A stretch of DNA of 64,000 bases from Deltaproteobacteria bacterium RIFCSPHIGHO2_02_FULL_44_16. GTDB taxonomy: Bacteria; UBA10199; 2-02-FULL-44-16. Location of the stretch: contig MGRM01000012.1 in the NCBI GenBank assembly GCA_001798185.1, forward strand, positions 88,120-152,119. The letters are read 5' to 3'. The notes below the pieces were generated by a model, which was not told the origin of the DNA, did not search any database, and was given only the letters and a program-made list of their open reading frames with translations. The position numbers and the translations under genes were made by a program. Positions 2,760-64,000 of the stretch are shown here, piece after piece. Each line of letters begins with the position of its first letter. Positions within the stretch are counted from its first letter, which is position 1.

Positions 2760-2864
2760 AAGGTTGCTTCCTTATTGATTCCTTGTTGATGAGATGAACA
2801 AGAGCTTGATTGCAATTCATGAGTGATTCTGTTTGGATACTCTGTTTTCGCCAGGGAGAAGGAT

Positions 2865-5744
2865 ATGCGCCAGGAACTGGTCATCCGAGGGGCCCGGATG
2901 CACAATTTAAAAAATATCGATGTGACGATTCCGAAGAATAAACTCGTGGTCATTACAGGGCTTTCCGGGTCAGGGAAGTCGTCACTTGCCTTTGACACCA
3001 TCTATGCCGAAGGCCAGCGGCGCTATGTCGAATCGGTCTCAGCCTATGCTCGCCAATTCTTGGAGCAGATGGAAAAACCCGACGTCGACTCTATCGAAGG
3101 ACTCTCCCCTGCGATTTCGATCGAACAGCGCACAAGTTCCCGAAATCCTCGCTCAACGGTCGGTACCTCTACTGAAATTTATGACTATCTCCGTGTTCTC
3201 TTTGCTCGTGCGGGTCGGCCCCATTGTTACAAATGCGGACGTGCGATTCAGGCACAAACAGTTTCACAAATGATCGATCAGATTTTAAAACTCCCTTCAG
3301 GAACAAAGATCGGAATTTTAGCTCCGATCGTACGCGGCAGAAAGGGCGAATATACGAAGGATCTTGAACGACTGGCCCGACAGGGCTTTGTACGGGCGCG
3401 CGTTGATGGCAATGTGGTGTCACTCGATCAAAAAATCACGATCGATAAAAAGAAAAAACATAACATCGATCTTTATGTCGATCGGCTCGTGATTAAAGAT
3501 GATATCACCACGCGTCTTGCCGATTCTCTTGAAACTGCTCTCGGTCAAGGCGAAGGGCTTGTGAAGATTGAACTGATAAGCAATGCTGTCATTCCCGCGA
3601 AGGCGGGAATCTCAAAAAATTCACTGGATCCCCGCTTACGCGAGGATGACAATCAAGAAATTCTTTTCTCCGCAAAACATGCGTGTGCTTATTGTGGGCT
3701 CAGTTATCCCGAAATTAATCCTCAACTCTTTTCGTTCAACAGTCCTCGTGGAGCTTGCCCAGCTTGCGAAGGTCTTGGGACGCGACTCTATTTCGATCCG
3801 AATCTCGTCATTCCCAACCACAACCTTTCACTTCGCGAAGGAGCGATTGCGCCATGGCGAACAAAAGCTTCAACAGCCTATATTAATCTCTGCGAAGCGC
3901 TCGCAAAGCATTATGGATTCGATATTCGCACGGCATTTGCCAAACTTCCTCCTCACATTCAAAATGCGATTCTTATGGGTTCGGGGGAAGAAGAAATTAC
4001 CTTTGCCTTTGAAGGGACAGAACGAGAAAAAATAAAAACACGTTTTGAAGGAATCATTCCTCAACTCGAACGACGATGGAAAGAGACAAGCTCCATGGAC
4101 ATTCGTGAAGAACTCGAATGTTTTATGAATCGTCGTCCCTGTCCTACGTGCCAAGGAACTCGTCTTCGTCCTGAAGGAAGAAGTATTCTTATTGGTGGAA
4201 AAAACATTTCACACGTCACGGCATTTTCTATTCGCGAATGCATGCGTTTTATTTCGACGCTTGACCTCACCAAAAAAGAGGCAACGATTGCGGAAAAAGT
4301 TTTAAAAGAGATTCGTGAACGTCTCGGTTTTCTGATTGATGTGGGACTTGACTATCTCACACTCGATCGCACAAGTGGAACACTTTCAGGAGGAGAAGAT
4401 CAACGCATTCGACTGGCAACGCAGATTGGATCTGCACTTACGGGTGTTCTCTATGTCCTTGATGAACCTTCGATTGGTCTTCATCAACGCGATAATGATC
4501 GTCTTCTTCAAACCATGAAACGATTACGCGATTTGGGAAATACGCTTATCGTCGTTGAACATGATCGCGACACCATGGAGCACGCTGATCATATTATTGA
4601 TCTCGGGCCTGAAGCGGGTGTGAGGGGGGGCTATGTCGTTGCCACCGGAACTCCGAGTGATATCAAACGAAATTCTAAATCGCTTACCGGACAATATCTC
4701 TCTGGAAAAAAGAAAATCGATGTTCCACGAGATCGTCGCACTTCTTTGCTGGACGAACTTATTATAAAAGGAGCACGCGAGCATAATCTCAAAAACATCG
4801 ATATTTGTATTCCCTTGGGAGTTCTTACCTGCGTCACCGGAGTCTCAGGCTCGGGAAAATCGACGCTTGTGAATGAAACCCTTTTACAAGGTCTGAAGCA
4901 AAGACTCGAACAATCCAAGGAAACCGCAGGAAAGGTAGATGACATCATTGGATGGCAGAAGCTCGATAAAGTCATTGATATCGATCAGTCTCCGATTGGC
5001 CGAACTCCTCGCTCCAATCCCGCAACCTATACGAGTATTTTTACGCATATCCGCGATCTCTTTGCAGAACTCCCTCAATCGAAAGCGCGCGGATATAAAC
5101 CAGGTCGGTTTTCTTTTAACGTCAAAGGGGGCCGATGCGAAGCGTGCGAAGGCGATGGCATCATTCGAATCGAAATGCATTTTCTCCCCGACGTGCATGT
5201 CGAGTGTGAAGTCTGCGCAGGAAAACGCTTTAATCGCGAAACACTCGAGGTTCATTATAAAGGATCTTCTATTGCAGATGTTTTAAGTATGACCGTGAAT
5301 CAAGCTTTTACTTTTTTTGAAAATATTCCGTCGATTCATCATAAACTTCAAACGCTCATCGATGTTGGCATGGGCTACATTGAGCTTGGCCAATCAGCCA
5401 CAACTCTTTCAGGCGGCGAAGCTCAGCGCATTAAGCTTTCGCGCGAACTTGCGCGACGCGCAACCGGGAGAACTCTTTATATCTTAGATGAACCAACAAC
5501 TGGTCTTCACTTTGATGATGTGCGAAAACTCCTCACTGTCCTCAACCGGCTTATCGATCAAGGAAATACTATTGTCGTCATTGAGCATAACCTTGACGTG
5601 ATCATGTCTGCTGATTACTGTATCGACTTGGGACCTGAAGGGGGAGAAAAAGGTGGCTTTCTCATCGCCACAGGAACACCTGAAGAGCTTGCTGCCCACC
5701 CTACTTCATATACCGGATTTTATTTACGAGAACTTCTTTCATGA
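2865..5744 (+). CDS. uvrA: excinuclease ABC subunit A (UvrA); carries an in-frame repeat insertion
   Basis: two ABC ATPase modules ([25 protein letters not shown]; LSGGE signature twice) and zinc-finger cysteines CxxC; start taken at [17 protein letters not shown]. Confidence 0.95.
3588..3651. repeat. family-1 double-hairpin MITE-like element, inserted in-frame inside uvrA
   Basis: GTCATTCCCGCGAAGGCGGGAATC...GGATCCCCGCTTACGCGAGGATGACA; same element as the intergenic copies; adds the peptide [21 protein letters not shown]. Confidence 0.8.
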
Positions 5745-6697
5745 AACATTTTCTTGCGCTCATGACTTTTCTTTGTCTATGCAACCGACCTCTCATGGCT
5801 TCTACGGAACTTCGACAATTCGTTCAAGAAGCCGCGCTGACAGATGGATCTCTTCTTGAAATCACCATTGTCGATAATGCATCAGAAGAACAACGCGCCA
5901 ACACCACTATTGACCGCGCTCTTGCAGCGATTCGAAAACTCGATCAGGACTTCGGGGCTGCGCCCGCTGCTGCGACGGGAAACTTACATGATCAACTCAA
6001 TCATTTAAAGCCACATACCCCTTTGAAACTCCCCGAAGGTTATTTTCTTCTCTTTGAACAAGCCATTGAACTCGCAAAACTGACCAACGGATGGTTTGAC
6101 ATTACCGCTCCTTCAAAAAAAGGAATTTTTGTTCAGCGCGATTATCGTCGCGTTGAGCTACGTCCCGCTTCATCTGAAATGGTGCTCACCAAAAAACATC
6201 TCAAATTTGATCTTCGTTGGCTTCTCTCTGGAACAGCGTGCGATGCAGCGCTTGCGATCATTCAAGAAGCGGGTTTTCAGCGAGCGGAAGTGAAGGTGGG
6301 ACCTGTCTCCAAACATATCGGCCGAGATATTCACACGCCATGGGGACTTCAGATCGATATCCCAGGAGTTCAAGATGCGTATGCGCATCGAGCTTTTCAG
6401 TATCGCTTGTCGGATATTGCTGTCGCACAACTTATTCCTGAAAAAATAACTCCTCCTCTGATCGATCCAAAAACAAAAAATCCGGTGAAGGGACAAGTCA
6501 AAAGCATTACGGTGATGGCCAAAGATGCGCTCCATGCCATTGCGTTTGCAGTCGCAATAGCGCCCTTCGATGCTCTCACCGGTATTCGCTATCTTGAAAA
6601 ATTTCCAGGGCTCGAAGGAATTATTGTAGATCAAACAGGAGCACTTTTTATTTCTGAAGGATTGAAACAAAATGAGAAAAAGGAGAAACCAAAATGA
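5741..6697 (+). CDS. apbE: FAD:protein FMN transferase (ApbE family) lipoprotein
   Basis: signal peptide with a lipobox-like Cys; conserved IDPKT/IDPRT motif ([12 protein letters not shown]) followed by SITVMAKDA..; start overlaps the uvrA stop (ATGA). Confidence 0.65.
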
Positions 6698-6720
6698 AAC
6701 TTCTGAAAAATCACCGAGAA

Positions 6721-6806
6721 GTCATTGCGAGGAGCGTAAGCTCCGAAGCAATCTCCTGGAGATGCTCTGCTCGGGAGATCGCCACGCCCTTCGGGCTCGC
6801 GATGAC
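6721..6806. repeat. family-3 repeat, copy a (inverted orientation)
   Basis: reverse complement of GTCATCGCGAGCCCGAAGGGCGTGGCGATCTC...CTCGCAATGAC; its terminal ...GCGATGACA supplies the ATG of the downstream apbE paralog. Confidence 0.75.
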
Positions 6807-7731
6807 ACTCACTCGGACTTTTTTCAGAGGTATCTGCGCGTTAATCCTTCCTTTGCTATGGCTCTCTTTCTCATCATCTGCACACGCCCAAACAACAGAA
6901 GACATACGACAAATGAGTCGCCGCTTTGAAATCGGAAACTCTCAAGGGGCCATCATCATTTTAGGCTATGTCAAAGATCAGGCAACGATCGAGAAAATTC
7001 TCGAAATCGCAGCAGGTGAAGCAAAACGCCTTCATGAAATCATCGACTGGAAAAATCCCCAAAGCGAAGTCGCTCGTTTAAATCAAGTCAGTGGTTCCAA
7101 ATTTTATCCGGTGAGCAAAGAAGTGCTGAATATTTTTAAAGCTGCGGCCAGACTTTCCGAATGGACCGAAGGCGCTTTTGATATTGCCGCAGAGTCTCCG
7201 GTAGGCACGTATGAAAATATTAAACTCGATGAAAAAGGTTCGCGCGTACGTCTTCAAAAGAAAAAAATGACGGTTCGTTTCGACGCTATTTTTGATGGCT
7301 ATCTTGCCGATTACCTTATTCGCTATCTTTATGGAGCTGGCATCCATCATGCGATGGTCAAGGTAGGAAATACATTTCGTGGAGTAGGACGTTCGCTCAA
7401 CGGTCCCTGGCGCATTCAAGTTCAGGATGATGAAGGAACCTATGCGCATCGCGCCATGAAACTCACCGTTGGCAACGCAGGTGTTGCTACCGTCAGCGCA
7501 GCTCAGTTTCGCCAAACTCCTCCGATCGATCCCAGAACAAAGCAATCTCTTCCTGTCTGTTGCAAAGGGGCCACGGTTGCAATGAAGGAAGCCGCTCTCG
7601 CGCAAGGCATGGCATACACCATGTTTATCTTAGGTCCTCAAGGCGGTGTTGTTCTCATGGAGCAACTCGGTAATGCCAAAGGCATGGTCGCCGATAATGA
7701 AGGAAAATTTGTGAAAACGAGCGGGTTTTAA
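6802..7731 (+). CDS. FAD:protein FMN transferase (ApbE family) paralog
   Basis: signal peptide (LILPLLWLSFSSSAHA); IDPRTKQS motif; ATVAMKEAALA..; tandem paralog of the upstream gene. The long ORF start at 6694 reads through the repeat and was trimmed. Confidence 0.6.
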   Translation: MTLTRTFFRGICALILPLLWLSFSSSAHAQTTEDIRQMSRRFEIGNSQGAIIILGYVKDQATIEKILEIAAGEAKRLHEIIDWKNPQSEVARLNQVSGSKFYPVSKEVLNIFKAAARLSEWTEGAFDIAAESPVGTYENIKLDEKGSRVRLQKKKMTVRFDAIFDGYLADYLIRYLYGAGIHHAMVKVGNTFRGVGRSLNGPWRIQVQDDEGTYAHRAMKLTVGNAGVATVSAAQFRQTPPIDPRTKQSLPVCCKGATVAMKEAALAQGMAYTMFILGPQGGVVLMEQLGNAKGMVADNEGKFVKTSGF

Positions 7732-8068: not shown

Positions 8069-8084
8069 AGCATGTTTAAAGAGT

Positions 8085-8174
8085 GTCATCGCGAGCCCGG
8101 AGGGCGTGGCGATCTCTAGCAATCACTGTCTGCAGGAGATTGCTTCGTCGCTAACGCTCCTCGCAATGACATAC
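8085..8174. repeat. family-3 repeat, copy b, between the antitoxin and toxin genes
   Basis: GTCATCGCGAGCCCGGAGGGCGTGGCGATCTC...GATTGCTTCGTCGC...CTCGCAATGACATAC with terminal inverted repeats of about 11 bp. Confidence 0.75.
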
Positions 8175-8206
8175 TAGGATTTGCAAACCAACTCTAAGGA
8201 CAGCGT

Positions 8207-9978: not shown

Positions 9979-10002
9979 AATGTTTCCTTAACAGAATATC
10001 GA

Positions 10003-10150
10003 AATGTCTCTCGGAGGCGTTGTCTCGCTACGGCAAAAATCCTCAGACGCCAGATTTTTGCCTGCGCTTCAGCCTGCCGGGTATTGAGGCTTCGTTTCCG
10101 GCGTCTGAAGACGCCGCTCGACAAACGCTTCCTGCGGCCATTTCGATATT
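10003..10150. repeat. family-2 ~150-bp structured element, copy a, intercistronic between pyrE and pyrF
   Basis: about 90% identical to 55402-55560; strong hairpins GGCAAAAATC..GATTTTTGCC and GGCGTCTGAAGACGCC. Confidence 0.75.
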
Positions 10151-10828
10151 GAAGTTACATGGTTTAACACCTATTTCAGCAAATTCCTGTTGAAGCGATT
10201 TCACAATTTCTTGCGATGGATGAAATCGTTTCATTGCTTCAGGTAAAAAGTCGGTTGCTCGACTCATGGCAAAATACGTGATTCCTTTTTTTACGAGAGC
10301 CTCTTCAACACTTTTGCCATCATCTCTTTTCTGCATTCGATTCGTCAGTCCAATTGCCGCTACAACTTCAACCTCTACTTGAGCAAGAGATTCGAGTGTT
10401 TCAAGAAGTGAACCGCCAGTAGTCGTCACATCTTCAAGCACAATCACTTTTCCTTTTGGAACACCGATAAAATATTTATCCTGCAGCGCGCCATGTTCTT
10501 TAGGCTTCGCCCTTCCCATCGAAAGAACATATTTTCCTGGAACGCAGTCTGATTGAGCCATCGCCCATTTATAATTGGTAAGAATACCGAGCTTCGTTGC
10601 ACCTTCAGGAACTCCGTAAAATCCATCAAACTGCAGACGTTTGCTGTGAGCAAAAGCGATGACAAAATCGGTCAATTGATCCAGGAGAACAACATCATTG
10701 GAAACATTTCGCCAATTGACATACCAACACGACTGACGGCCCGACTTCAGCGTCATTGGTTTTTCGAAAAAACCGACGACATTATGGGTAAGAAGAAAAT
10801 CGTTGAAACGTTGTTGATCAAAATTCAT
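10043..10828 (-). CDS. pyrE: orotate phosphoribosyltransferase
   Basis: TLKSGRQSCWYVN and VLEDVTTTGGS PRTase motifs; start trimmed to MNFDQQ because the longer ORF reads through a family-1 repeat; the C-terminal ~35 aa are encoded by the family-2 repeat. Confidence 0.8.
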   Translation of the reverse strand: MNFDQQRFNDFLLTHNVVGFFEKPMTLKSGRQSCWYVNWRNVSNDVVLLDQLTDFVIAFAHSKRLQFDGFYGVPEGATKLGILTNYKWAMAQSDCVPGKYVLSMGRAKPKEHGALQDKYFIGVPKGKVIVLEDVTTTGGSLLETLESLAQVEVEVVAAIGLTNRMQKRDDGKSVEEALVKKGITYFAMSRATDFLPEAMKRFHPSQEIVKSLQQEFAEIGVKPCNFNIEMAAGSVCRAASSDAGNEASIPGRLKRRQKSGV

Positions 10829-10845
10829 ATTTTCTCTCACATTTT

Positions 10846-10915
10846 TGTCATCCTCGCGAAAGCGGGGATCCAGTGTTTTGGATATTTCTGGATTCCCGCT
10901 TTCGCGGGAATGACA
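10846..10915. repeat. family-1 double-hairpin element, copy b (intergenic)
   Basis: TGTCATCCTCGCGAAAGCGGGGATCC...GGATTCCCGCTTTCGCGGGAATGACA. Confidence 0.8.
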
Positions 10916-10919
10916 ACTT

Positions 10920-12782
10920 TCATAACACAAGAAGCAAAAGAGCAAGGAGAAAAATCACACCAAATCCCATACAGGACGCAATATAGATGAGTTCTGATCG
11001 ATGTCGCACGAGTTTCACATTTCCATGAAACATTTCTTTTAGGAATCTTAAAGTACGTGCGCGAAGGTTCGGTGATTCCAAAAGATCTGCAAGAAAATAA
11101 TATCCATCAAAATCAAGGAGAGGACAGAGATTCAAAAGAACAACAACATACGAAAGAGAAGCAAAGAGGAGCGCAAGAGAATCGAACATCGCATGATCGA
11201 TTACGAATGCCATGATCGAAGCAATCCCGGCTGGAATCATATGAGCATAAGGGCCTGCGAGTGTAACAGACATGCGGGGGAAACGTGATGCAGTCCACAT
11301 ATCAGAGGTATCGACAAAAAACATGGGGCCGACCCAATACCAGCCAAAACCGACTCCAAGCACGCGACGTTGAAAATGTTTTACCGTGAGCGCATGCCCT
11401 GCTTCGTGAAAAAGAATGCTCATGAAAAAGAGAGGAAGAAGCCACCATAACCAGATGGGAAAAGTCATCGCACGCTGAAATGCAGAAACAATCGAAACCT
11501 TCTGAGACGAAAAGGAGAAAAGACCGAAAAGGACAACAGAGCCAATAATGCATTGGCCTTTTTTGGAAAAGAACAAACAAGATATTTTTTGGAAGATGCC
11601 TGCAATCCATGCATCAACATCTGAAATATAGTATCTCCACTGAAGAATGCGTGAAAGAACACTGAAACATAAAACGAGACGGGAATGGAACGTATTCTTC
11701 AAGTCTCTTGTTTTCGCATTCCTCCCCTCAATCATGCCTGCAGCACCAAGGTCACTTATTTGCTGGGCAATCACATGAGGGGCAAAAGCTTTGTATTTTT
11801 CAAAATAGGATAAGGTGAGTTCTTTGAGTGTATGATCACCATCGAGAAGTTCCCACAAAAACAATCCTTCTGGTGTCAGCCGATAATAAAGATGCGCCGT
11901 TGGATCGTTCAGGATGAAAGAACGAATTCCATCTTTCGTTTCATATTCTTGAATGATAATTGTTTTGCGTCGGCATGGACGATCGCGAAGTTGCAAAAGA
12001 TCAATAAATTGGAGTCGGGCGCTCGGCTCATCGTGCAAGAACTGAAGCAATGCATCGCGCGAAATAACGAGTAGCTCTGAAGGTTCAACGGCTTTGACTG
12101 TCGCATTTCGTTTCTCTCCTGAAAGCAAAGCCGCTTCCCCGAATGTTGCTCCGGTTTCAAGAAAAGCGAGGGGCTTTTTATTTCCCACTTGATCTGAAGT
12201 TGTCACTTCAACTTTTCCCTGTCTCAACAGATAACATTCTGATCCCATTTCTCCCTCGCGAAGAAGAATTTCTCCTGACCGAACACTTTTCGACTGAAGA
12301 GATGTTGCAAATTTTTTGAGTCGATCAGCCGAAAGTGAAGAAAAAGGAGAGAGTTGTTTCAGAAATGAGGCTCGAAGCAATATTTCGGCCGTCTCTTCAA
12401 AAAGTTTTTTTGCATCTGGCGACTCATCAAGAGCGGCAAGAAAATCCTCACGAGAAAGTGAAAGTGCATGAAGTGTGGTAAGAGCAAATACCGAAGCGGT
12501 CCGTTTTTGATGTTTTGAAAGAAGCGCAATCTCGCCAAAATATTCTCCTGGACCAAGTGTTGCCATGACGACTGGTCCTGAGGAAGATGAAACAGCAACT
12601 TCGGCTCTCCCCTGAAGGATCAGGAAAAAGCGCTCCCCTTCTCCTCCTTCAGCGACAATCTTCACTCCGGAAGAAAAAACCTCTTCCCGAAAATGTTCTG
12701 AAAAAAAAGAAAGCGCCTTGTCGGAAAATAAAGCAAACAAGGACGCTTTCTTGAGCAACCTGACGTAATCTTTGGATGTCAT
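10920..12782 (-). CDS. membrane protein with tandem cyclic-nucleotide-binding domains fused to a site-2-protease-like M50 metalloprotease domain
   Basis: two CAP_ED-like segments (FFLILQGRAEV..GEYFGEIALL and YLLRQGKVEV..GATFGEAALLSGEKRNATVKA); C-terminal hydrophobic helices with HEAGHAL (HExxH) and LLDFDG motifs. Confidence 0.7.
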   Translation of the reverse strand: MTSKDYVRLLKKASLFALFSDKALSFFSEHFREEVFSSGVKIVAEGGEGERFFLILQGRAEVAVSSSSGPVVMATLGPGEYFGEIALLSKHQKRTASVFALTTLHALSLSREDFLAALDESPDAKKLFEETAEILLRASFLKQLSPFSSLSADRLKKFATSLQSKSVRSGEILLREGEMGSECYLLRQGKVEVTTSDQVGNKKPLAFLETGATFGEAALLSGEKRNATVKAVEPSELLVISRDALLQFLHDEPSARLQFIDLLQLRDRPCRRKTIIIQEYETKDGIRSFILNDPTAHLYYRLTPEGLFLWELLDGDHTLKELTLSYFEKYKAFAPHVIAQQISDLGAAGMIEGRNAKTRDLKNTFHSRLVLCFSVLSRILQWRYYISDVDAWIAGIFQKISCLFFSKKGQCIIGSVVLFGLFSFSSQKVSIVSAFQRAMTFPIWLWWLLPLFFMSILFHEAGHALTVKHFQRRVLGVGFGWYWVGPMFFVDTSDMWTASRFPRMSVTLAGPYAHMIPAGIASIMAFVIDHAMFDSLALLFASLSYVVVLLNLCPLLDFDGYYFLADLLESPNLRARTLRFLKEMFHGNVKLVRHRSELIYIASCMGFGVIFLLALLLLVL

Positions 12783-12792
12783 TTTATATTGA

Positions 12793-12993
12793 TTACATCC
12801 CCTTATTCATTTTTGCTGTAAGCTGTTGATCATTTAATTTCCAGTCGATCTTGCGAAATGCATTTGTTTCTTCTGCCGTTAGCTTCACACCAGTTGATTG
12901 CAATGTTCCTATCGGGTTCTTTCGCATCTTCGTTCTAAAACCAATGTCATTCGCCCACTTCTCAACTAACATTTCAATCTCTTTGCGTGCCAT
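12793..12993 (-). CDS. small paralogous peptide 1 (66 aa), NHLP/Nif11-leader-like
   Basis: MARKEIEMLVEKWANDIGFRTKMRKNPIGTLQSTGVKLTAEE...; AGGAGG RBS 6 nt upstream of the ATG; trimmed from the longer ORF. Confidence 0.6.
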   Translation of the reverse strand: MARKEIEMLVEKWANDIGFRTKMRKNPIGTLQSTGVKLTAEETNAFRKIDWKLNDQQLTAKMNKGM

Positions 12994-13006
12994 TCTTCCT
13001 CCTTGT

Positions 13007-13210
13007 TTAAGCAAGCCATTTACTGACACGTGATTGCAATTCTTGATCACTCAACTTCCAATCAATGTTTTTAAAAGCATTCATTTCTTCTGGTGTCAGC
13101 TTCACTCCTGTTGATGTAAGCGTTGCCATCGGATCTTTTCGCATCTTGGTTCTGAAACCAGCATCACTTGTCCATTTTTCGACTAACATTTCAATTTCCT
13201 TGCGCACCAT
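13007..13210 (-). CDS. small paralogous peptide 2 (67 aa)
   Basis: MVRKEIEMLVEKWTSDAGFRTKMRKDPMATLTSTGVKLTPEE...; own RBS. Confidence 0.6.
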   Translation of the reverse strand: MVRKEIEMLVEKWTSDAGFRTKMRKDPMATLTSTGVKLTPEEMNAFKNIDWKLSDQELQSRVSKWLA

Positions 13211-13240
13211 ATAACCTCCCTATGATTTTCGTTCTCATGA

Positions 13241-13438
13241 CTAATACTTATTTATCCTTGCCTTAAGTTCTTCGTCATTTAAACTCCAGTCAATTTTGCG
13301 AAATGCACCCATTTCTTCGTTTGTTAGTTTCACTCCTGTCGATGTGATCGTTCCCATTGGATCTTTGCGCATCTTTGTTCGGAATCCCATATCATTCGTC
13401 CATTTCTCAACCAATCCTTCAATCTCCTTGCGCACCAT
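13241..13438 (-). CDS. small paralogous peptide 3 (65 aa)
   Basis: MVRKEIEGLVEKWTNDMGFRTKMRKDPMGTITSTGVKLTNEE...; AGGAGG RBS. Confidence 0.6.
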   Translation of the reverse strand: MVRKEIEGLVEKWTNDMGFRTKMRKDPMGTITSTGVKLTNEEMGAFRKIDWSLNDEELKARINKY

Positions 13439-13453
13439 ATATCCTCCTTTTGA

Positions 13454-13654
13454 TCAAGGTATCTTAGAAACTCTGGTTTTTAGTTCCTCATCACTTAGTT
13501 TCCAATCAATCTTGCGGAACACTGACATTTCTTCGGGGGTAAGTTTCACTCCCGTTGTTTGCAACGTGTCCTCAGGATTCTGCCGCATGTTCTTGCGAAA
13601 CATCTGGTCGTTCATCCACTTGTCGAACAACATGTCGATTTCTTTTTTTCCCAT
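13454..13654 (-). CDS. small paralogous peptide 4 (66 aa)
   Basis: MGKKEIDMLFDKWMNDQMFRKNMRQNPEDTLQTTGVKLTPEE...; GGAGGAGG RBS; trimmed from the longer ORF. Confidence 0.6.
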   Translation of the reverse strand: MGKKEIDMLFDKWMNDQMFRKNMRQNPEDTLQTTGVKLTPEEMSVFRKIDWKLSDEELKTRVSKIP

Positions 13655-14621
13655 CGTCCTCCTCCTTTGAAAAAAATGAAGCGTTGCGAATAAGCTTCTG
13701 CAGCACTTTTGCTGCAGGCTCAAAAGGTCGCGCTTCCATAAGCGCAGAACGTGCTTTCTCGCAATAAATTTCAGTCACAATCGCTGTCATCCACTTTGCT
13801 CCTGTTGCACTCAGCTGTGTTTGAATTGCACGTCGACTTTTGAGAGAAGATTTTGCATCTTGAAGCGACGTCAAAAAAATTTGCTTTTCCACTCCCTTCA
13901 AACGCTCGAGACAAAAAGCGATTGGAAAGGTTCTCGTGCCATTGGAGATATCCTTACTCTGTTGAGATTCAAAAAGATCATAACAATCTGACGAAAGTTG
14001 ACCCGCAACACCAAGAGCCCTGGCGTATGCCATATAATGTTCAACACATTCTGGATGAGCATTTGCCGTATGTGCTGCAAGGGCTGCAAACATCGCTAAT
14101 TCCTCGCCACTCTTTTTCATGACACTTAACTCAACTGCGTTCGTCGATACTTTACTCTTGTTCACAGATGCAATGTCTTGTTGCTGTCCATCGCTCATGA
14201 TGAGGAGCCCACGCGCAATCGTTTCATGCATGAGATTTTTCTGCTCATGCGAAAGAGAGAGTTTTGCAAGAAGAAGGTGAGGAAACGTGCTGACAAGTGT
14301 TGTTCCTAATATCAATCCTTCTTGAGGAGTTAATTTTCCCTCGTGTTGCAAATCTCCATCCGCAAGATCATCGAGGATATCGATTCCCAAATAGAGTATT
14401 GACGTGAGAACTGGAAGCAAGATGGGAACTTTTTTTGCGGTAATCCCCTCATAGACAGCCGATGGAAGCGAAATAAAGAAAAGTTCACTCTCTTCCGAAA
14501 CGTAGGTTTGAAGACGTTCAACAGCATATGCAAAAAGCCGTCGCTGTTCAGAAGATTGCGACCAGGAAGAGAGTTCATCTTGAAGACGTGACAGAACTTC
14601 AGATGTTTCCGAAGACTTCAA
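13572..14621 (-). CDS. trans-isoprenyl diphosphate synthase-like (polyprenyl synthetase fold) protein
   Basis: first Asp-rich motif DILDDLADGD at the expected position; second motif degenerate (GQLSSDCYDLFE); the 3' end overlaps peptide 4 by about 80 nt in another frame. Confidence 0.55.
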   Translation of the reverse strand: MKSSETSEVLSRLQDELSSWSQSSEQRRLFAYAVERLQTYVSEESELFFISLPSAVYEGITAKKVPILLPVLTSILYLGIDILDDLADGDLQHEGKLTPQEGLILGTTLVSTFPHLLLAKLSLSHEQKNLMHETIARGLLIMSDGQQQDIASVNKSKVSTNAVELSVMKKSGEELAMFAALAAHTANAHPECVEHYMAYARALGVAGQLSSDCYDLFESQQSKDISNGTRTFPIAFCLERLKGVEKQIFLTSLQDAKSSLKSRRAIQTQLSATGAKWMTAIVTEIYCEKARSALMEARPFEPAAKVLQKLIRNASFFSKEEDDGKKRNRHVVRQVDERPDVSQEHAAES

Positions 14622-21796: not shown

Positions 21797-21815
21797 TTAG
21801 GTGCCGTGCACTTAA
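21797..21815. repeat. REP palindrome (RAYT-associated type)
   Basis: TTAGGTGCCGTGCACTTAA, same motif as the copies flanking the RAYT gene. Confidence 0.6.
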
Positions 21816-22557: not shown

Positions 22558-24075
22558 ATGCTTGCTCAAGTTTACGCCGCTGCACTCGTGGGAATCGAAA
22601 CGCAACTCGTCGAAGTGGAAGTCGACGTTCAAATGCAAGGCCTTCCTGGTTGGAGCATGGTCGGTCTCCTTGAAACCGCGGTCAAAGAAGCGCGCGATCG
22701 CGTGTTGCCAGCGCTTCGAAATTCTGGATATAAACTTCTCAATCGTCGCACCATTGTAAATCTCGCTCCAGGAAATGTGAAAAAAAGTGGAGCTCATTTT
22801 GATCTCCCCATCGCCATCGGCATGCTCACGGCCTGGAATATTTGCAAACCTCATCCAGACAAACGCTATCTTCTGGCTGGCGAATTATCGCTGACGGGAG
22901 AACTTCTTCCCATTAATGGCGCGCTTCTCATGGCTATTGCTGCGCGGGCTCATCAACTCACGGGCATTATTCTTCCGGTTCAAAATGAAGAAGAGGCAAA
23001 ACTTGTCACTTCAACAGAAGTTGTTGGATTTTCAACATTGACCGAAGTCGTTCAATTTCTCAATGGAGAGTTTGTTCCCACAAAACAGATGCCTCCAAAA
23101 AAACAAAAACGAACTGCGCCGCCACTTAATTTTGGAGAAGTGCGCGGTCAGCCGATCGCGAAACGCGCGCTCGAAATTGCTGCTGCGGGCGGACACAACA
23201 TTTTGATGGTCGGAACACCTGGCTCTGGAAAGACAATGCTTGCAGAGAGATTACCCACAATTCTTCCTCCACTGACTTCTGAAGAAAAATTGGAAACGAT
23301 GAAGGTCTTAAGTCTGCATGGACTTCTTCACGATACGATTCTTTCTGACGAACGCCCTTTTCGTGCTCCGCATCATTCTGCTTCGTATGCAGGGCTTATC
23401 GGCGGCGGTGGAGGGATACCGAAACTTGGAGAAATTTCGCTCGCACACAATGGCGTTCTGTTTATGGATGAGCTTGCTGAGTTCAATCGTAATGTCTTGG
23501 AAGTTCTGCGTCAGCCACTCGAGTCTGGTCTCGTCCGTCTTGTTCGCACTGGAGCGAGCGTCACCTATCCTGCTCGCTTTATGTTGGTGGCTGCGATGAA
23601 TCCGTGTCCTTGCGGATATTATGGTCATCCAAAACGTGCGTGTATTTGTAATATGCATCGTATTCAGCATTATCGACGAAAAGTTTCAGGACCACTGATT
23701 GATCGAATCGACATTCACATTGAAGTCGAACCAGTTCCTCATAAAGATCTGATGGGAGATAAACCGACAGAAACATCTGAGATGATTAAACAGCGAGTCC
23801 TCGCAGCACGAAAAATTCAAGAAGCACGCTACGATTCACGCATTGGTTGTAATGCTCAACTCCATGCTCGTGATTTAAAAAAATTCTGTCCTTTTAAAGG
23901 AAATGCAGAATCGCTTCTCGAAAAAGCGACCGAGAAAATGCACCTCTCAGCTCGCTCAACCCATCGCGTATTGAAAATTGCCCGAACCATCGCCGACCTC
24001 GAATCCTCCGACGCCCTCGGCCCACCTCATATCGCCGAAGCACTGCAGTATAGGCCTACGGATGATGTGCATTAA
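22558..24075 (+). CDS. comM: Mg-chelatase-like AAA ATPase YifB/ComM
   Basis: N-terminal MLAQVYAAALVGIETQLVEVEVD; Walker A GTPGSGKT; C-terminal ChlI-like region. Confidence 0.85.
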   Translation: MLAQVYAAALVGIETQLVEVEVDVQMQGLPGWSMVGLLETAVKEARDRVLPALRNSGYKLLNRRTIVNLAPGNVKKSGAHFDLPIAIGMLTAWNICKPHPDKRYLLAGELSLTGELLPINGALLMAIAARAHQLTGIILPVQNEEEAKLVTSTEVVGFSTLTEVVQFLNGEFVPTKQMPPKKQKRTAPPLNFGEVRGQPIAKRALEIAAAGGHNILMVGTPGSGKTMLAERLPTILPPLTSEEKLETMKVLSLHGLLHDTILSDERPFRAPHHSASYAGLIGGGGGIPKLGEISLAHNGVLFMDELAEFNRNVLEVLRQPLESGLVRLVRTGASVTYPARFMLVAAMNPCPCGYYGHPKRACICNMHRIQHYRRKVSGPLIDRIDIHIEVEPVPHKDLMGDKPTETSEMIKQRVLAARKIQEARYDSRIGCNAQLHARDLKKFCPFKGNAESLLEKATEKMHLSARSTHRVLKIARTIADLESSDALGPPHIAEALQYRPTDDVH

Positions 24076-24090
24076 GTGCCGTGCACTTAA
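24072..24090. repeat. REP palindrome overlapping the comM stop
   Basis: TTAAGTGCCGTGCACTTAA. Confidence 0.65.
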
Positions 24091-24111
24091 TTGAGAAAAA
24101 AGAGGCTTATA

Positions 24112-24741
24112 ATGCCCCGCTACCCCATAATTCATATTCCCGACGGAATTTATTCAGTAACCAGCAAATGCAACAATAATGAATTTCTCTTTGACGCTGA
24201 AGAGAAGTTTCAATTGTATTTACATCATCTCCTAGAATGTAAACGCAAATTGAATTTCATTATCTATGATCTCTGTTGTATGTCGAACCATGTGCATGAA
24301 CTTTATCGTGTCACCCGTGGAATTACGATTGCGGATATTCTTCACACCGTTCGTGGACATTTTTCTCAAAAATTTAATACTCGTTTTGGGCGAAGCGGAC
24401 ATTTTTGGAAAAGCAAACCTTACTATCGTATTGTTGAAGACGAGCAATATGCATTTCATCTCATGAATTATTTTCACTTAAATCCTGTAAAGGCCGGCCT
24501 TGTTGATAAACCTGAAAATTGGCCTTATTCAGGATATCGCTTTCATATGCTCGGGGACCGAAAAGGACTTATGGGGAGACTACTTAATCAAATTCCTGGA
24601 ACTTCGAAATCCACAACATCAGTCGATTCTGAAAACTTGTATTTGAACAAGTTACTTCAACGACGTCGATTACGATTTATTGGAACAGAAGAGTTTATAA
24701 ACAGCATGCAGACAAGATATAAACGAGATAGCGAGAAATAA
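24112..24741 (+). mobile_element. REP-associated tyrosine transposase (RAYT, IS200/IS605 TnpA-like HUH Y1 transposase)
   Basis: MPRYPIIHIPDGIYSVTS N-terminus; HuH motif SNHVHEL; YFHLNPVKAGLVDKPENWPYSGY catalytic-Tyr motif; flanked by REP palindromes. Confidence 0.8.
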
Positions 24742-24815
24742 GTGCCGTGCACTTAAATGAAAAAATTCTCGCTTTAAATGCATTTTTCTTCCAAATAAGT
24801 GCACGGCACTTAAGT
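24739..24815. repeat. inverted pair of REP palindromes (BIME-like) immediately 3' of the RAYT gene
   Basis: TAAGTGCCGTGCACTTAA at 24739-24756 and the inverted copy TAAGTGCACGGCACTTAAG at 24797-24815, separated by about 40 bp. Confidence 0.65.
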
Positions 24816-30293: not shown

Positions 30294-30317
30294 GACCATC
30301 TGAAAAACTTCAAAAAT

Positions 30318-30387
30318 GTCATTCCCGCGCAGGCGGGAATCCAGTATTGTCAGTAACTTCTGGATCCCTGCCTTCGCAGGGATGACA
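30318..30387. repeat. family-1 double-hairpin element, copy c (between convergent genes)
   Basis: GTCATTCCCGCGCAGGCGGGAATCC...GGATCCCTGCCTTCGCAGGGATGACAA. Confidence 0.8.
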
Positions 30388-38687: not shown

Positions 38688-40331
38688 CTAATGATGAAAA
38701 TGCCGTTTACCGGTGAAGACCATGGCGATATTATGTTCATTGGCAGCTTCAATGACTTCATCATCGCGAAGAGAGCCACCGGGTTGGATGATGGCTGTGA
38801 TCCCTGCTTTTGCTGCAATATCAACACCATCACGAAAAGGAAAAAAGGCATCCGACCCCAGGGACTGCGTCCCTCTTCTGGGTATTTTTTGGGAGTTCAA
38901 TTTTTTAATTGCTTGTTCAACTGCATCCACTCGACTTGTCTGGCCAGCGCCGATACCAAAGGTTTGATCTTCTGATGCAATCACAATGGCATTAGACTTC
39001 ACATGTTTACACAGTCTCCATGCAAAGTTAAGAGCTACACCCTCTTCCTGGGATGGTGAACGTTTGGTCACGATTTGATATTGATGAATGTTTTCTTCTC
39101 CCACATCTCGATCTTGAACCAGCAAACCACCTGCAACTTTGCGAAGGGTCAATCCTGGAGAAGCTCCTCGTTTTCCTAAACCCTCCACTTCCAGCAAACG
39201 AAGATTTTTTTTCTTCGACAAAAGTACTTTTGCTTCATCTGAAAACGATGGCGCCAAAATCACTTCAAAAAAAGTTTCCCCGATCGCCTCTGCAGTCGCT
39301 TTATCGAGTTCTCGACTCAGCGCCACAATACCACCAAAAGCCGAAAGCGCATCGGCATCTCGCGCTTTGCAAAATGCATCCGCGAGAGACATTGATGAAA
39401 CTGAGGCCCCGCAGGGATTTGCGTGCTTGATGATGACAGCAGCAAAAGGAGCATCATTGAAATCTTTGATCACCGAAAGAGCCGCATCAGCATCCATAAT
39501 ATTGTTGTAGGAGAGCTCTTTCCCGTGAAGTTGTCGCGCATTGAAAATGCTTGGCTCAGACAAACTGTCATTCCCGCGAAGGCGGGAATCTCCTGAGATC
39601 CCTGCTTTCGCAGGGATGACAACCATATTACTCACATCACGATAGAGCGCAGCTCTCTGATGCGGATTTTCTCCATATCTCAAGGCTTGCGCCTTTTCAT
39701 AGATAAGTCCTAGCGTTTTGGGGAAATCTGCAACCTTTTCTTCATTCTCAAATCCAGTAAGATAGTTTGCAATCGCTGCATCATACCGAGCCGTCGTTGC
39801 AAAAACTTTTTGTGCTAAACGGAACTTCGTTCCTTTCGAAAGTTCTCCCTGATTTTTTTTCATTTCTTCAAGCACCGACACATAATCAGCATGATCCACA
39901 ATAACCGCAACATCGTGATAATTCTTCGCAGCAGCGCGAAGCATGGTCGGACCACCGATATCGATATGTTCGATGGCGTGAGACAAGGAGCAACCATCAG
40001 CAACGGTTTTTTCAAAAGCATAGAGATTGACCACAACAAGATCGATCGTCTCGATCTTTTGTTCTTTCAGTTCCTGCAGATGAATTTTGTTTTGACGAAT
40101 CGCAAGCAGACCACCATGAATTTTCGGATGAAGTGTTTTCAGTCTTCCATCGAGAATTTCAGGAGAACCGGTGTAATCGGAAACATCTCTCACTACAATT
40201 CCAGCATCTCGCAAAACTTTTGCCGTTCCTCCGGTCGAAAGAATTTCAACGCCAAGCGCGGCAAGCTCTTGAGCAAAAGCAACAATGCCGGTTTTGTCGG
40301 TAACACTGATAAGAGCACGTTTGATTTTCAT
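38688..40331 (-). CDS. purH: bifunctional AICAR transformylase / IMP cyclohydrolase; carries an in-frame repeat insertion
   Basis: MGS-like N-terminal domain; YGENPHQ; ELSYNNI; AICARFT C-terminal domain. Confidence 0.9.
39557..39612. repeat. family-1 double-hairpin element inserted in-frame in the purH interdomain linker
   Basis: GTCATTCCCGCGAAGGCGGGAATCTCCTGAGATCCCTGCTTTCGCAGGGATGACAA; adds [19 protein letters not shown] between YGENPHQ..LYRDVSN and ..[12 protein letters not shown]. Confidence 0.8.
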
Positions 40332-49082: not shown

Positions 49083-49136
49083 GAAAGGTTGCGGCTTTTT
49101 ACCTGTTCCATAATATGCGGGGCGTCGGTGAGGGGG
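49083..49136. repeat. duplicated purF 3'-end fragment (distal direct repeat)
   Basis: 41 nt identical to 50921-50961 (TTTTTACCTGTTCCATAATATGCGGGGCGTCGGTGAGGGGG) plus an upstream AAAGGTTGCG match with an indel. Confidence 0.8.
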
Positions 49137-50899: not shown

Positions 50900-50961
50900 A
50901 AAGGTTGCGTCAATTTTTACTTTTTACCTGTTCCATAATATGCGGGGCGTCGGTGAGGGGG
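50900..50961. repeat. proximal direct repeat, which is the authentic purF 3' end
   Basis: see 49083-49136. Confidence 0.8.
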
Positions 50962-55401: not shown

Positions 55402-55560
55402 CCAAATTCAAAACGTCTCTCGGAGGCAACCTCTCACTACGGCAAAAATCCTCACACGCCAGATTTTTGCCTGCGCTTCAGCCTGCTGGGTATTGAGGCT
55501 TCGTTTCCAGCGTCTGAAGACGCCGCTCGAGGCTCGCCTCCTTCGGCCGTTTTTAAATTA
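55402..55560. repeat. family-2 structured element, copy b, intercistronic between purS and purQ
   Basis: about 90% identical to 10003-10150. Confidence 0.75.
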
Positions 55561-55800: not shown

Positions 55801-55826
55801 AATAACTCCTATCCCAAACTGATTTT

Positions 55827-55911
55827 GTCATCCCTGCGAAGGCAGGGATCCAGAAGCTTGTCCCCACGAAGGTGGGGATTTCACTGGATTCCCGCCTACG
55901 CGAGAATGACA
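55827..55911. repeat. family-1 element, copy e (three-hairpin variant) between purB and purS
   Basis: GTCATCCCTGCGAAGGCAGGGATCC...GTCCCCACGAAGGTGGGGAT...GGATTCCCGCCTACGCGAGAATGACA. Confidence 0.8.
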
Positions 55912-63224: not shown

Positions 63225-64000
63225 GTTTCTCACCAGCTTCTTTCCCAAGTTCTTTTGCTTTCGATTTCTTTCCCTTTTTCTGAACTGAGAAAAATTTTTC
63301 CCCTTTGGCACCAGCGAGAAAAGCGTTCAAAAGAATTTCATCTCCTTGCACTCGCGCATAAGCACCAACGGGAGTGTGGCAGTCGCCACCGATGGCTTGA
63401 AGTAAAGCTCGTTCGGCTTCGGTTGCAATCCAGGTCTCTTCGTCGTTAAAAAGTTTTTGAAGAACTCTTATCAGTGCTTGATCATTCTCTCGAGTTTCAA
63501 GTGCAAGCGTTCCTTGCCCGATGGCCGGAATGAAACGAAAAGTTTCAAGGTATTCAAAATGCACGATATGCTGGCTGCTGTGAAAGTTGTTAAGAATGTC
63601 ATCGCGAGCCCGAAGGGCGTGGCGATCTCCTGAAAGCACTGTCTGCATGAGATTGCTTCGTCCCCTTCGTTTCTTCTCAGGGTCCTCGCAATGACCTTCA
63701 GACTCTAATATTCCAAGCCGCTTGAGTCCTGCTGCCGCAAGAACAATGGCATCAAACTCTCCTGCTTCAAGTTTTTTAAGTCGGGTATCGACATTGCCGC
63801 GCATCGGAACAATTTCAAGATCAGGGCGCAGTCGCTGTAACTGAATCCGCCGGCGAGGACTCGATGTTCCGAGCTTCGCTCCCTGAGGCAACATCGGTAG
63901 GGGCACACGGCCGTGCGCCCCTACATCAGTAGGGCCACATACTATCACGACATCCCTTGCATCCTCACGCTTAGGTGTGCACGCAATTGTCAGTCCTTTT
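63205..64000 (-). CDS. hemC: porphobilinogen deaminase (partial; N-terminus lies beyond the window end); carries an in-frame family-3 repeat
   Basis: LGTSSPRRRIQLQRLRPDLEIVPMRGNVDTRLKKL, AIVLAAAGLKRLG and IPAIGQG match HemC; the ORF is open to the window edge. Confidence 0.8.
   Translation of the reverse strand, partial: KGLTIACTPKREDARDVVIVCGPTDVGAHGRVPLPMLPQGAKLGTSSPRRRIQLQRLRPDLEIVPMRGNVDTRLKKLEAGEFDAIVLAAAGLKRLGILESEGHCEDPEKKRRGRSNLMQTVLSGDRHALRARDDILNNFHSSQHIVHFEYLETFRFIPAIGQGTLALETRENDQALIRVLQKLFNDEETWIATEAERALLQAIGGDCHTPVGAYARVQGDEILLNAFLAGAKGEKFFSVQKKGKKSKAKELGKEAGEKLIRHLC
63598..63695. repeat. family-3 repeat, copy d, in-frame inside hemC
   Basis: GTCATCGCGAGCCCGAAGGGCGTGGCGATCTCC...CCTCGCAATGAC; encodes ...LSGDRHALRARDD... 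in a region absent from canonical HemC. Confidence 0.8.

Follow-up and report, generated by a model that had tools for sequence, protein, structure and literature searches.

The window analysed here, a stretch of 64,000 nt, comes from the metagenome-assembled genome (MAG) of Deltaproteobacteria bacterium RIFCSPHIGHO2_02_FULL_44_16. It contains purH, which codes for the bifunctional enzyme 5-aminoimidazole-4-carboxamide ribonucleotide (AICAR) transformylase/inosine monophosphate (IMP) cyclohydrolase. Within the coding sequence of purH there is a copy of a short palindromic element, termed family 1, that is dispersed in the window. The element is an inverted dimer of hairpins of the repetitive extragenic palindromic (REP) type, and it is read in frame. 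The features of this gene are as follows.

38688-40331, minus strand: purH, open reading frame (ORF) of 547 aa, host of the inserted element
39566-39621, no strand assigned: family-1 element in purH, 56 nt, inverted dimer of two TGTC-tagged REP hairpins
39570-39589, no strand assigned: left hairpin ATTCCCGC-GAAG-GCGGGAAT, perfect 8-bp stem
39598-39617, no strand assigned: right hairpin ATCCCTGC-TTTC-GCAGGGAT, perfect 8-bp stem, families D3 and I19
39564-39623, minus strand: codons of the inserted peptide, 20 aa, PurH residues 237-256

The element has the order TGTCAT, ATTCCCGC GAAG GCGGGAAT (left hairpin), CTCCTGAG, ATCCCTGC TTTC GCAGGGAT (right hairpin), GACA. On the plus strand, 39566-39621 reads TGTCAT TCCCGCGAAGGCGGGA ATCTCCTGAGAT CCCTGCTTTCGCAGGG ATGACA, so that the element is bracketed by the inverted ends TGTCAT/ATGACA. 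Together with one flanking base it comprises 57 nt, which corresponds to 19 codons. The peptide (VIPAK...NDS) is encoded at 39564-39620, and the approximately 20 inserted residues are hydrophilic and rich in glycine and proline. A first-pass annotation of this DNA had read the inserted peptide and its flanking motifs correctly but had placed the element at 39557-39612, which is about 8 nt too low.

When folded as DNA, the element forms two separate 8-bp hairpins (-19.1 kcal/mol, z-score -6.0), while it forms a single long hairpin when folded as mRNA (-33.3 kcal/mol, z-score -4.6). This strong RNA structure is the sole point in favour of the insert being absent from the mature product, either by an intron-like or intein-like removal or by ribosome bypass. 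We consider such a removal highly improbable, as 57 nt is far below the size of a group I or group II intron or of an intein and as the Rfam scan of the element returned no family at threshold. The best Rfam match (39544-39624, plus strand) is to FtrB, the Francisella small RNA (sRNA) B, which is sub-threshold with 30.9 bits versus a gathering threshold of 66 bits (E 0.003). The FtrB family may itself stem from a similar repeat. No promoter or terminator signals were found at the purH element.

The purH ORF runs without interruption over its full length. Pfam domains MGS (residues 15-129) and AICARFT_IMPCHas (residues 134-477) are detected, and a PDB search with the 547-aa ORF retrieves solved structures of PurH (E 4e-131). 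In our alignment of PurH sequences, of which it is the first, the window PurH has kept all invariant columns (95 of 95), K302-H303 among them. The AlphaFold model has a mean predicted local distance difference test (pLDDT) score of 92.2 and a predicted template modelling (TM) score of 0.87, and Foldseek superimposes it on PurH from Mycobacterium tuberculosis (3zzm) with a TM score of 0.84. It might be argued that purH is a damaged, decaying or inactive copy and that purines are provided by another gene or by salvage. The insert is located between the conserved motifs YGENPHQ and SYNN, which we take to contribute to binding of AICAR or substrate, and insertions are tolerated in several core genes of this genome, including uvrA and hemC. 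The full-length ORF, the 95 retained invariant positions and the confidently predicted native fold speak against decay, as does the sequence identity across samples described below. In addition, the region is rich in intact purine genes, with purL, purQ, purS and purB in the window and purD/purE nearby, on locus L003. We thus regard damage to purH as very unlikely.

Among 120 aligned PurH sequences, the inserted residues are confined to the window PurH and absent from its 119 homologues. At this site, the homologues, which are at most 63-66% identical, have a short, unconserved loop of variable length. Alignment to solved structures breaks at the same point. The HMMER alignment to 3zzm is split at chain residue 239, leaving query residues 234-255 unmatched, and that to PurH structure 9ou7 has its gap at the same point. 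Short repeats are a classic cause of misassembly in metagenomes, and one may ask if a repeat was wrongly joined into purH during assembly or binning. However, the identical 547-aa PurH is found on 12 contigs from at least eight independent samples (ENA, JGI, Logan), obtained with different assemblers, and a 111-nt stretch around the element is identical in all eight loci that were compared. A second strain variant (P0121) also has the insert. Misassembly is thus excluded by the retained frame, the contiguous PurH flanks and the recovery in at least eight samples, and we give practically no weight to an artefact.

The first-pass annotation had assigned the insert to the linker between the two PurH domains. 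Our placement of the domain boundaries relies on the AlphaFold model and on those known from avian ATIC, where the IMP cyclohydrolase covers residues 1-199 and the AICAR transformylase residues 200-593. In the model, the cyclohydrolase half closes with a helix (166-191). The interdomain linker is the coil that comes next, at about 192-210. It is followed by strands at 211-217 and 227-232, by the insert (ca. 236-256) and by a strand at 266-269. The insert thus falls within the AICARFT_IMPCHas match and is predicted to extend the loop of a beta-hairpin that is located some 25 residues inside the AICAR transformylase domain; it is not part of the linker. Residues 241-255 are the only segment of the model with a pLDDT below 50. 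The tip of the loop, between the strand AALYRD and the strand RQLH, is variable among the homologues and predicted to be surface-exposed. The inserted residues are predicted to be disordered, so that neither the fold nor the catalytic residues would be affected. Such a position, with low pLDDT and between two strands of the predicted structure, is of the surface or loop type that is characteristic of the Rickettsia palindromic elements.

Further copies of the element occur throughout the window. The 20-mer hairpin has five matches at up to 3 mismatches, compared to 0.00 in 100 shuffled sequences. Altogether, the 64 kb contain five dimers or trimers and one singlet of family 1, all dispersed, while none are expected. 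The proposal that purH carries an in-frame insertion of a dispersed palindromic element is supported. The copies outside purH, together with the second affected ORF, are listed here.

2823-5744, plus strand: uvrA ORF, contains the family-1 copy at 3587-3651
3587-3651, no strand assigned: family-1 copy in uvrA, 65 nt, in frame, encodes 23 aa
8730-8757, minus strand: single family-1-type hairpin CGTCATCCCCGTGAAAACGGGGATCTCC, carries a CGTCAT tag and matches the SRM regular expression (see below)
10846-10915, no strand assigned: family-1 copy, 70 nt, treated as intergenic
30317-30387, no strand assigned: family-1 copy, 71 nt, intergenic between convergent genes
55826-55911, no strand assigned: family-1 copy with three hairpins, 86 nt, intergenic between purB and purS

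All five multi-hairpin copies open with TGTCAT and close with ATGACA, and no consistent target-site duplication was found in their flanks. The copy at 10846-10915 directly follows the stop codon (10920) with which ORF 10920-12782 ends, and its overlap with ORF 10043-10945 is limited to the TTG-extended 5' end of that ORF. Relative to UvrA from Geobacillus (2r6f), the window UvrA has about 23 additional aa between the positions of residues 258 and 260, and a gap also occurs in the alignment to 9gxk.

The left 28 nt are identical in the uvrA and purH copies (family D4), both on the plus strand of the window. As the two genes are on opposite strands, the purH copy is, with respect to its gene, inverted relative to the uvrA copy, in agreement with the first-pass annotation. 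Nevertheless, the two peptides are nearly identical, because the element has dyad symmetry and is nearly its own reverse complement. In either orientation it reads V-I-P-A-K-A-G-I ... (D)SR-L-R-x-(N/D)-D. For each orientation, one frame always contains a TGA codon, which originates from ATGACA, while the other two can be open if the spacer permits. In uvrA as in purH, the VIPAKAGI frame is the one in use. The two genic copies have lengths of 65 nt (uvrA) and 56 nt (purH) from TGTCAT to ATGACA and become a multiple of three with one flanking base, while the non-genic copies have 70, 71 and 86 nt. When the insert peptides of uvrA and purH were joined and used as a query against a collection of 5.8 billion proteins, only ORFs of 41-83 aa that lack domains were returned (E at least 0.003); this query is too short to inform on genic copies.

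Elements of this kind have been described as CGTC-tagged REPs by Di Nocera et al. (2013, BMC Genomics 14:522, PMC3733652). These carry a terminal CGTC, with TGTC or CCTC accepted as variants, and consist of a G+C-rich stem of 8-9 bp, a loop of 4-5 nt and a short tail; inverted dimers predominate. Family CGTC-1 was equated with dRS3 from Neisseria, and CGTC-1 and CGTC-4 from Rickettsia conorii were equated with RPE-6 and RPE-4 (PMC3733652). Intragenic CGTC dimers encode 20-30 aa, and many of them occur in uvrA, uvrB, recBCD, polA and tRNA pseudouridine synthase genes. Among the REP-encoded peptides of R. conorii, the supplement lists a 16-residue peptide and DSRFRGND, and VIPAKAGI is also documented. 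A transposase dedicated to CGTC REPs did not emerge from that study (PMC3733652). The tag, the 8-bp stem, the 4-nt loop and the occurrence as dispersed inverted dimers are common to these REPs and the purH element, and uvrA is a target there as it is in the window. We conclude that the purH element is, as judged from its sequence, a TGTC-tagged REP of the CGTC-1/dRS3/NTS/RPE-6 type. The first-pass annotation had recognised neither this class nor the phenomenon. There are also differences. The host is an uncultured aquifer bacterium outside the set of surveyed genomes, purH is not among the target genes listed in the text and five supplements of that study (PMC3733652), and the right hairpin of the purH element has the ATCCCTGC stem variant.

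The relationship to Neisseria repeats could be analysed with the SRM (Ssn-related motif), NTS and dRS3 definitions from PMC11893778 (Nat Commun 2025). The dRS3 core ATTCCC-N8-GGGAAT fits exactly to 39570-39589 but not to the variant sequence of the right hairpin (ATCCCTGC...GCAGGGAT). Hairpins that match the SRM pattern, HGTCWYN(0-2)YYVSBRHN(0-5)WNVSBRGN(0-2)RNCYNB, occur seven times in the window, compared to a mean of 0.23 in 30 dinucleotide shuffles, and one of them is 39566-39593. The 28-nt NTS consensus CGTCATTCCCGCGMAVGCGGGAATCYRG is matched by the window copies at 25-27 of 28 positions, the best being the copy at 30317-30387 (27 of 28). In Neisseria, dRS3/NTS elements are intergenic and clustered. 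Their cleavage in single-stranded DNA (ssDNA) is carried out by SsnA, a small GIY-YIG nuclease that modulates transformation and whose gene is often flanked by the motif (PMC11893778). That paper does not discuss in-frame genic copies, of which there are two here.

A further parallel is to REPINs. The Neisseria master 21-mer ATTCCCGCGCAGGCGGGAATC occurs exactly at 30321-30341, within the copy at 30317-30387, and the purH element shares with REPINs that it is an inverted REP doublet which can be folded as one long hairpin. In the REPIN-RAYT system (Bertels and Rainey; bioRxiv 10.1101/2021.07.10.451892), the cognate REP-associated tyrosine transposase (RAYT) is flanked by the same REP, and the repeats are extragenic by definition. 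In the window and its flanks no such cognate RAYT was found, and the purH and uvrA copies are genic.

In their effect on proteins, the inserts resemble the Rickettsia palindromic elements (RPE). Like RPE, the purH and uvrA copies are palindromic repeats that lie in frame in housekeeping genes, at predicted surface or loop sites, probably without destroying the protein. Both represent repeats in a conserved gene that are absent from its orthologues. RPE-1 is longer, with about 100-150 bp and 30-50 aa, and is unrelated in sequence to the purH element. While Rickettsia is obligate intracellular, the MAG that hosts this purH comes from groundwater. Such elements were reportedly presented by Ogata et al. 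(Science, 2000) as 'Selfish DNA in protein-coding genes of Rickettsia'. The connection to RPE-6, which shares identical peptide motifs with CGTC-1, is an indirect one via the equation in PMC3733652.

Inverted doublets of this type are widespread. A degenerate doublet pattern was found at no fewer than 120 loci in other genomes. The matches listed come from Alpha-, Beta- and Gammaproteobacteria, Gemmatimonadota, Chloroflexota, Bacteroidota, Planctomycetota, Omnitrophota, many lineages of the Candidate Phyla Radiation and a Rickettsiaceae endosymbiont. Among these listed matches, 10 of 124 doublets are spanned by an open frame that extends 60 aa or more beyond them in both directions. Three of these ten (in TruB, the beta-CASP RNase and UvrA) are confirmed by Pfam as real genes, with domains on both sides of the doublet. 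In-frame TGTC/CGTC doublets from unrelated bacteria include the following.

L016, 1690-1766: in TruB
L110, 7402-7467: in a beta-CASP metallo-beta-lactamase RNase
L112, 1709-1781: in another UvrA
L059, 1582-1647: in-frame doublet

A different palindromic repeat is found in frame in the same loop of PurH in the lineage represented by P0042 and P0123 (from Rifle), which is 62% identical and has the same mlaEFD-purH synteny. This repeat has the sequence CCCTCTCCC-TTGA-GGGGGGAGGG, and its pattern is CCCTCTCCC-N-GGGAGGG. Two copies are found at this locus.

L009, 6078-6100: hairpin repeat CCCTCTCCC-N4/5-GGGAGAGGG in purH, encodes PNSLSLEGGGVGERV
L009, 5309-5331: sister copy just upstream of purH, read into a mis-called N-terminus (MGEGRGEGG)

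Repeat-like inserts also occur elsewhere in PurH homologues, at about residues 198 (which is in the true linker), 391 and 485. After residue 198, LPSPLGGEGW and RESHEPKCARSPLTAAGMT are found, and IPPPQGGRVWEG and KGEAGGGRSTLPFPPLQR occur after residue 391. These lineage-specific inserts are carried by the homologues P0010, P0017, P0030, P0034, P0041 and P0111, as judged from an alignment of protein sequences only.

Since unrelated repeats occupy the same loop in two PurH lineages, and since three core genes (uvrA, purH, hemC) carry in-frame insertions, the PurH loop at about residue 235 might be a recurrent landing site, either by targeting at the DNA level or because the insert, as mRNA hairpin or as peptide, has acquired a regulatory role in purine synthesis. 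If this were true, the insertions would be more than the filtered survivors of random insertion. We consider this to be very unlikely. The tolerance of this loop for insertions is supported.

We consider it very likely that the purH segment is a copy of a non-autonomous palindromic repeat, an inverted TGTC-tagged REP dimer, that has landed in coding sequence and is tolerated there as a passenger. According to this scenario, a small palindromic REP dimer would have inserted into the coding sequence of purH. It would have persisted because its length is a multiple of three, because the frame is free of stop codons and because it resides at the tip of a variable, surface-exposed beta-hairpin. The element would be transcribed and translated along with purH, adding about 20 disordered residues. 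In essential genes, only those copies would survive that have a length divisible by three, lack stop codons and are located in a flexible loop. The data fit such a survivorship of neutral or mildly harmful insertions, and we regard the element as a passenger and not as a functional module.

The first-pass annotation had suggested that these elements are tolerated in, or selected for, loop positions. Tolerance is consistent with the variable loop, the predicted disorder and the 95 retained invariant positions, while no evidence supports selection. An insert that is kept for its function, either by an mRNA hairpin that tunes translation or decay of purH or by a loop that provides an interaction or regulatory surface, has little probability in our view. 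Its proponents could refer to the perfect stems and the mRNA fold, and to the fixation of the insert in all sampled populations and in the second strain variant. Di Nocera et al. have speculated on a possible change in activity when REPs insert into repair genes (PMC3733652). However, the same element occurs in intergenic regions and in unrelated genes that share no functional context, the peptide is predicted to be disordered and is kept by no orthologue, and there is no terminator or promoter signal at the element. Moreover, the unrelated sequence at the same site in the P0042 lineage points to tolerance.

Several points weigh against the passenger scenario. The status of the purH segment as an insertion is an argument from parsimony, as derived from sequence comparison, and no empty site was found among the PurH homologues. 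As the nearest of these are only 63-66% identical, neither the exact insertion boundaries nor any target duplication can be fixed. We infer that the insert is translated and that PurH has retained its activity. The stems of both hairpins are perfect, which indicates either a recent insertion or selection on the DNA or RNA structure; together with the strong mRNA fold they fit a recent insertion.

Other points of this kind concern the enzyme that mobilises family 1. For hairpins of this class, two types of candidate partner are available from the literature, the RAYT-type Y1 transposases (bioRxiv 10.1101/2021.07.10.451892) and the Ssn-type GIY-YIG nucleases, represented by SsnA (PMC11893778). 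The window and 10 kb to either side of it were surveyed in part, with many window ORFs unscanned, and this did not turn up a GIY-YIG/ssnA gene. The survey consisted of a crude GIY-YIG/HUH motif regular expression applied to all ORFs of at least 50 aa, of Pfam searches with 20 selected small ORFs and of precomputed Pfam labels for loci that overlap or flank the window (about 40 kb). In the same region, no RAYT flanked by family 1 was found. There is a RAYT-like ORF in the window, but it is flanked by a palindrome of its own, which is unrelated in sequence to family 1.

24091-24741, plus strand: RAYT-like IS200-type Y1 transposase ORF (Pfam Y1_Tnp, 32.3 bits; HVH and YFHLNPVKAGLV motifs)
21799-21815, 24074-24090, 24740-24756 and 24795-24811: palindrome AAGTGCCGTGCACTTAA, four copies versus 0 expected

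With its palindromes, which make up a third repeat family, the ORF at 24091-24741 resembles a REPtron. For family 1 itself, we infer a spread by a hairpin-specific ssDNA enzyme, either of the RAYT-type Y1 or of the Ssn-type GIY-YIG kind.

The window contains additional repeats. A family-2 repeat (GTCATCGCGAGCC...GGCGTGGCGATC type) is read in frame in hemC, the gene for porphobilinogen deaminase, and represents a third in-frame repeat insertion in the 64 kb.

63205 to beyond 63999, minus strand: hemC, called at 349 aa in other assemblies
63592-63702: family-2 repeat within hemC

When the hemC product is aligned to PDB 5ov6, its residues 98-148 have no counterpart and fall between residues 177 and 184 of the structure. 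Another family-2 copy (6721-6810) is read as VIARSVSSEAISWRCSAREIATPFGLAMT at the N-terminus of the longest ORF at 6694-7731, a member of the ApbE family; its true start is probably located downstream, at the signal peptide. This copy and the one at 8079-8198 are in inverted orientation and bracket 1.3 kb with the ApbE gene and a PhdYeFM antitoxin.

Direct repeats also occur. A 152-nt repeat with 87% identity is found at 9999-10150, where it covers the 3' terminus of an ORF of the phosphoribosyltransferase type, and at 55408-55559, in an unusually long purS-purQ spacer. Region 12802-13665 consists of four tandem units of about 203-217 nt (63-73% identity) with only small ORFs that lack a Pfam match. 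The 42-mer CTTTTTACCTGTTCCATAATATGCGGGGCGTCGGTGAGGGGG is exactly repeated at 49095-49136 and 50920-50961, with 1.8 kb in between.

In summary, the purH case extends a known phenomenon to a further host gene and a further organism and is of low to moderate interest. It leaves the understanding of CGTC-type elements and of PurH unchanged. With it, purH and a free-living groundwater bacterium join the core enzymes that are decorated in frame by CGTC/dRS3-type REP dimers, and it is a clean example of one protein loop that was hit independently by two unrelated repeat families. For annotation, the strings VIPAKAGI and RLRGND may be used as markers of repeat-derived sequence. The case is also of use for mapping permissive loops in PurH, and it bears on the question of what mobilises CGTC REPs.

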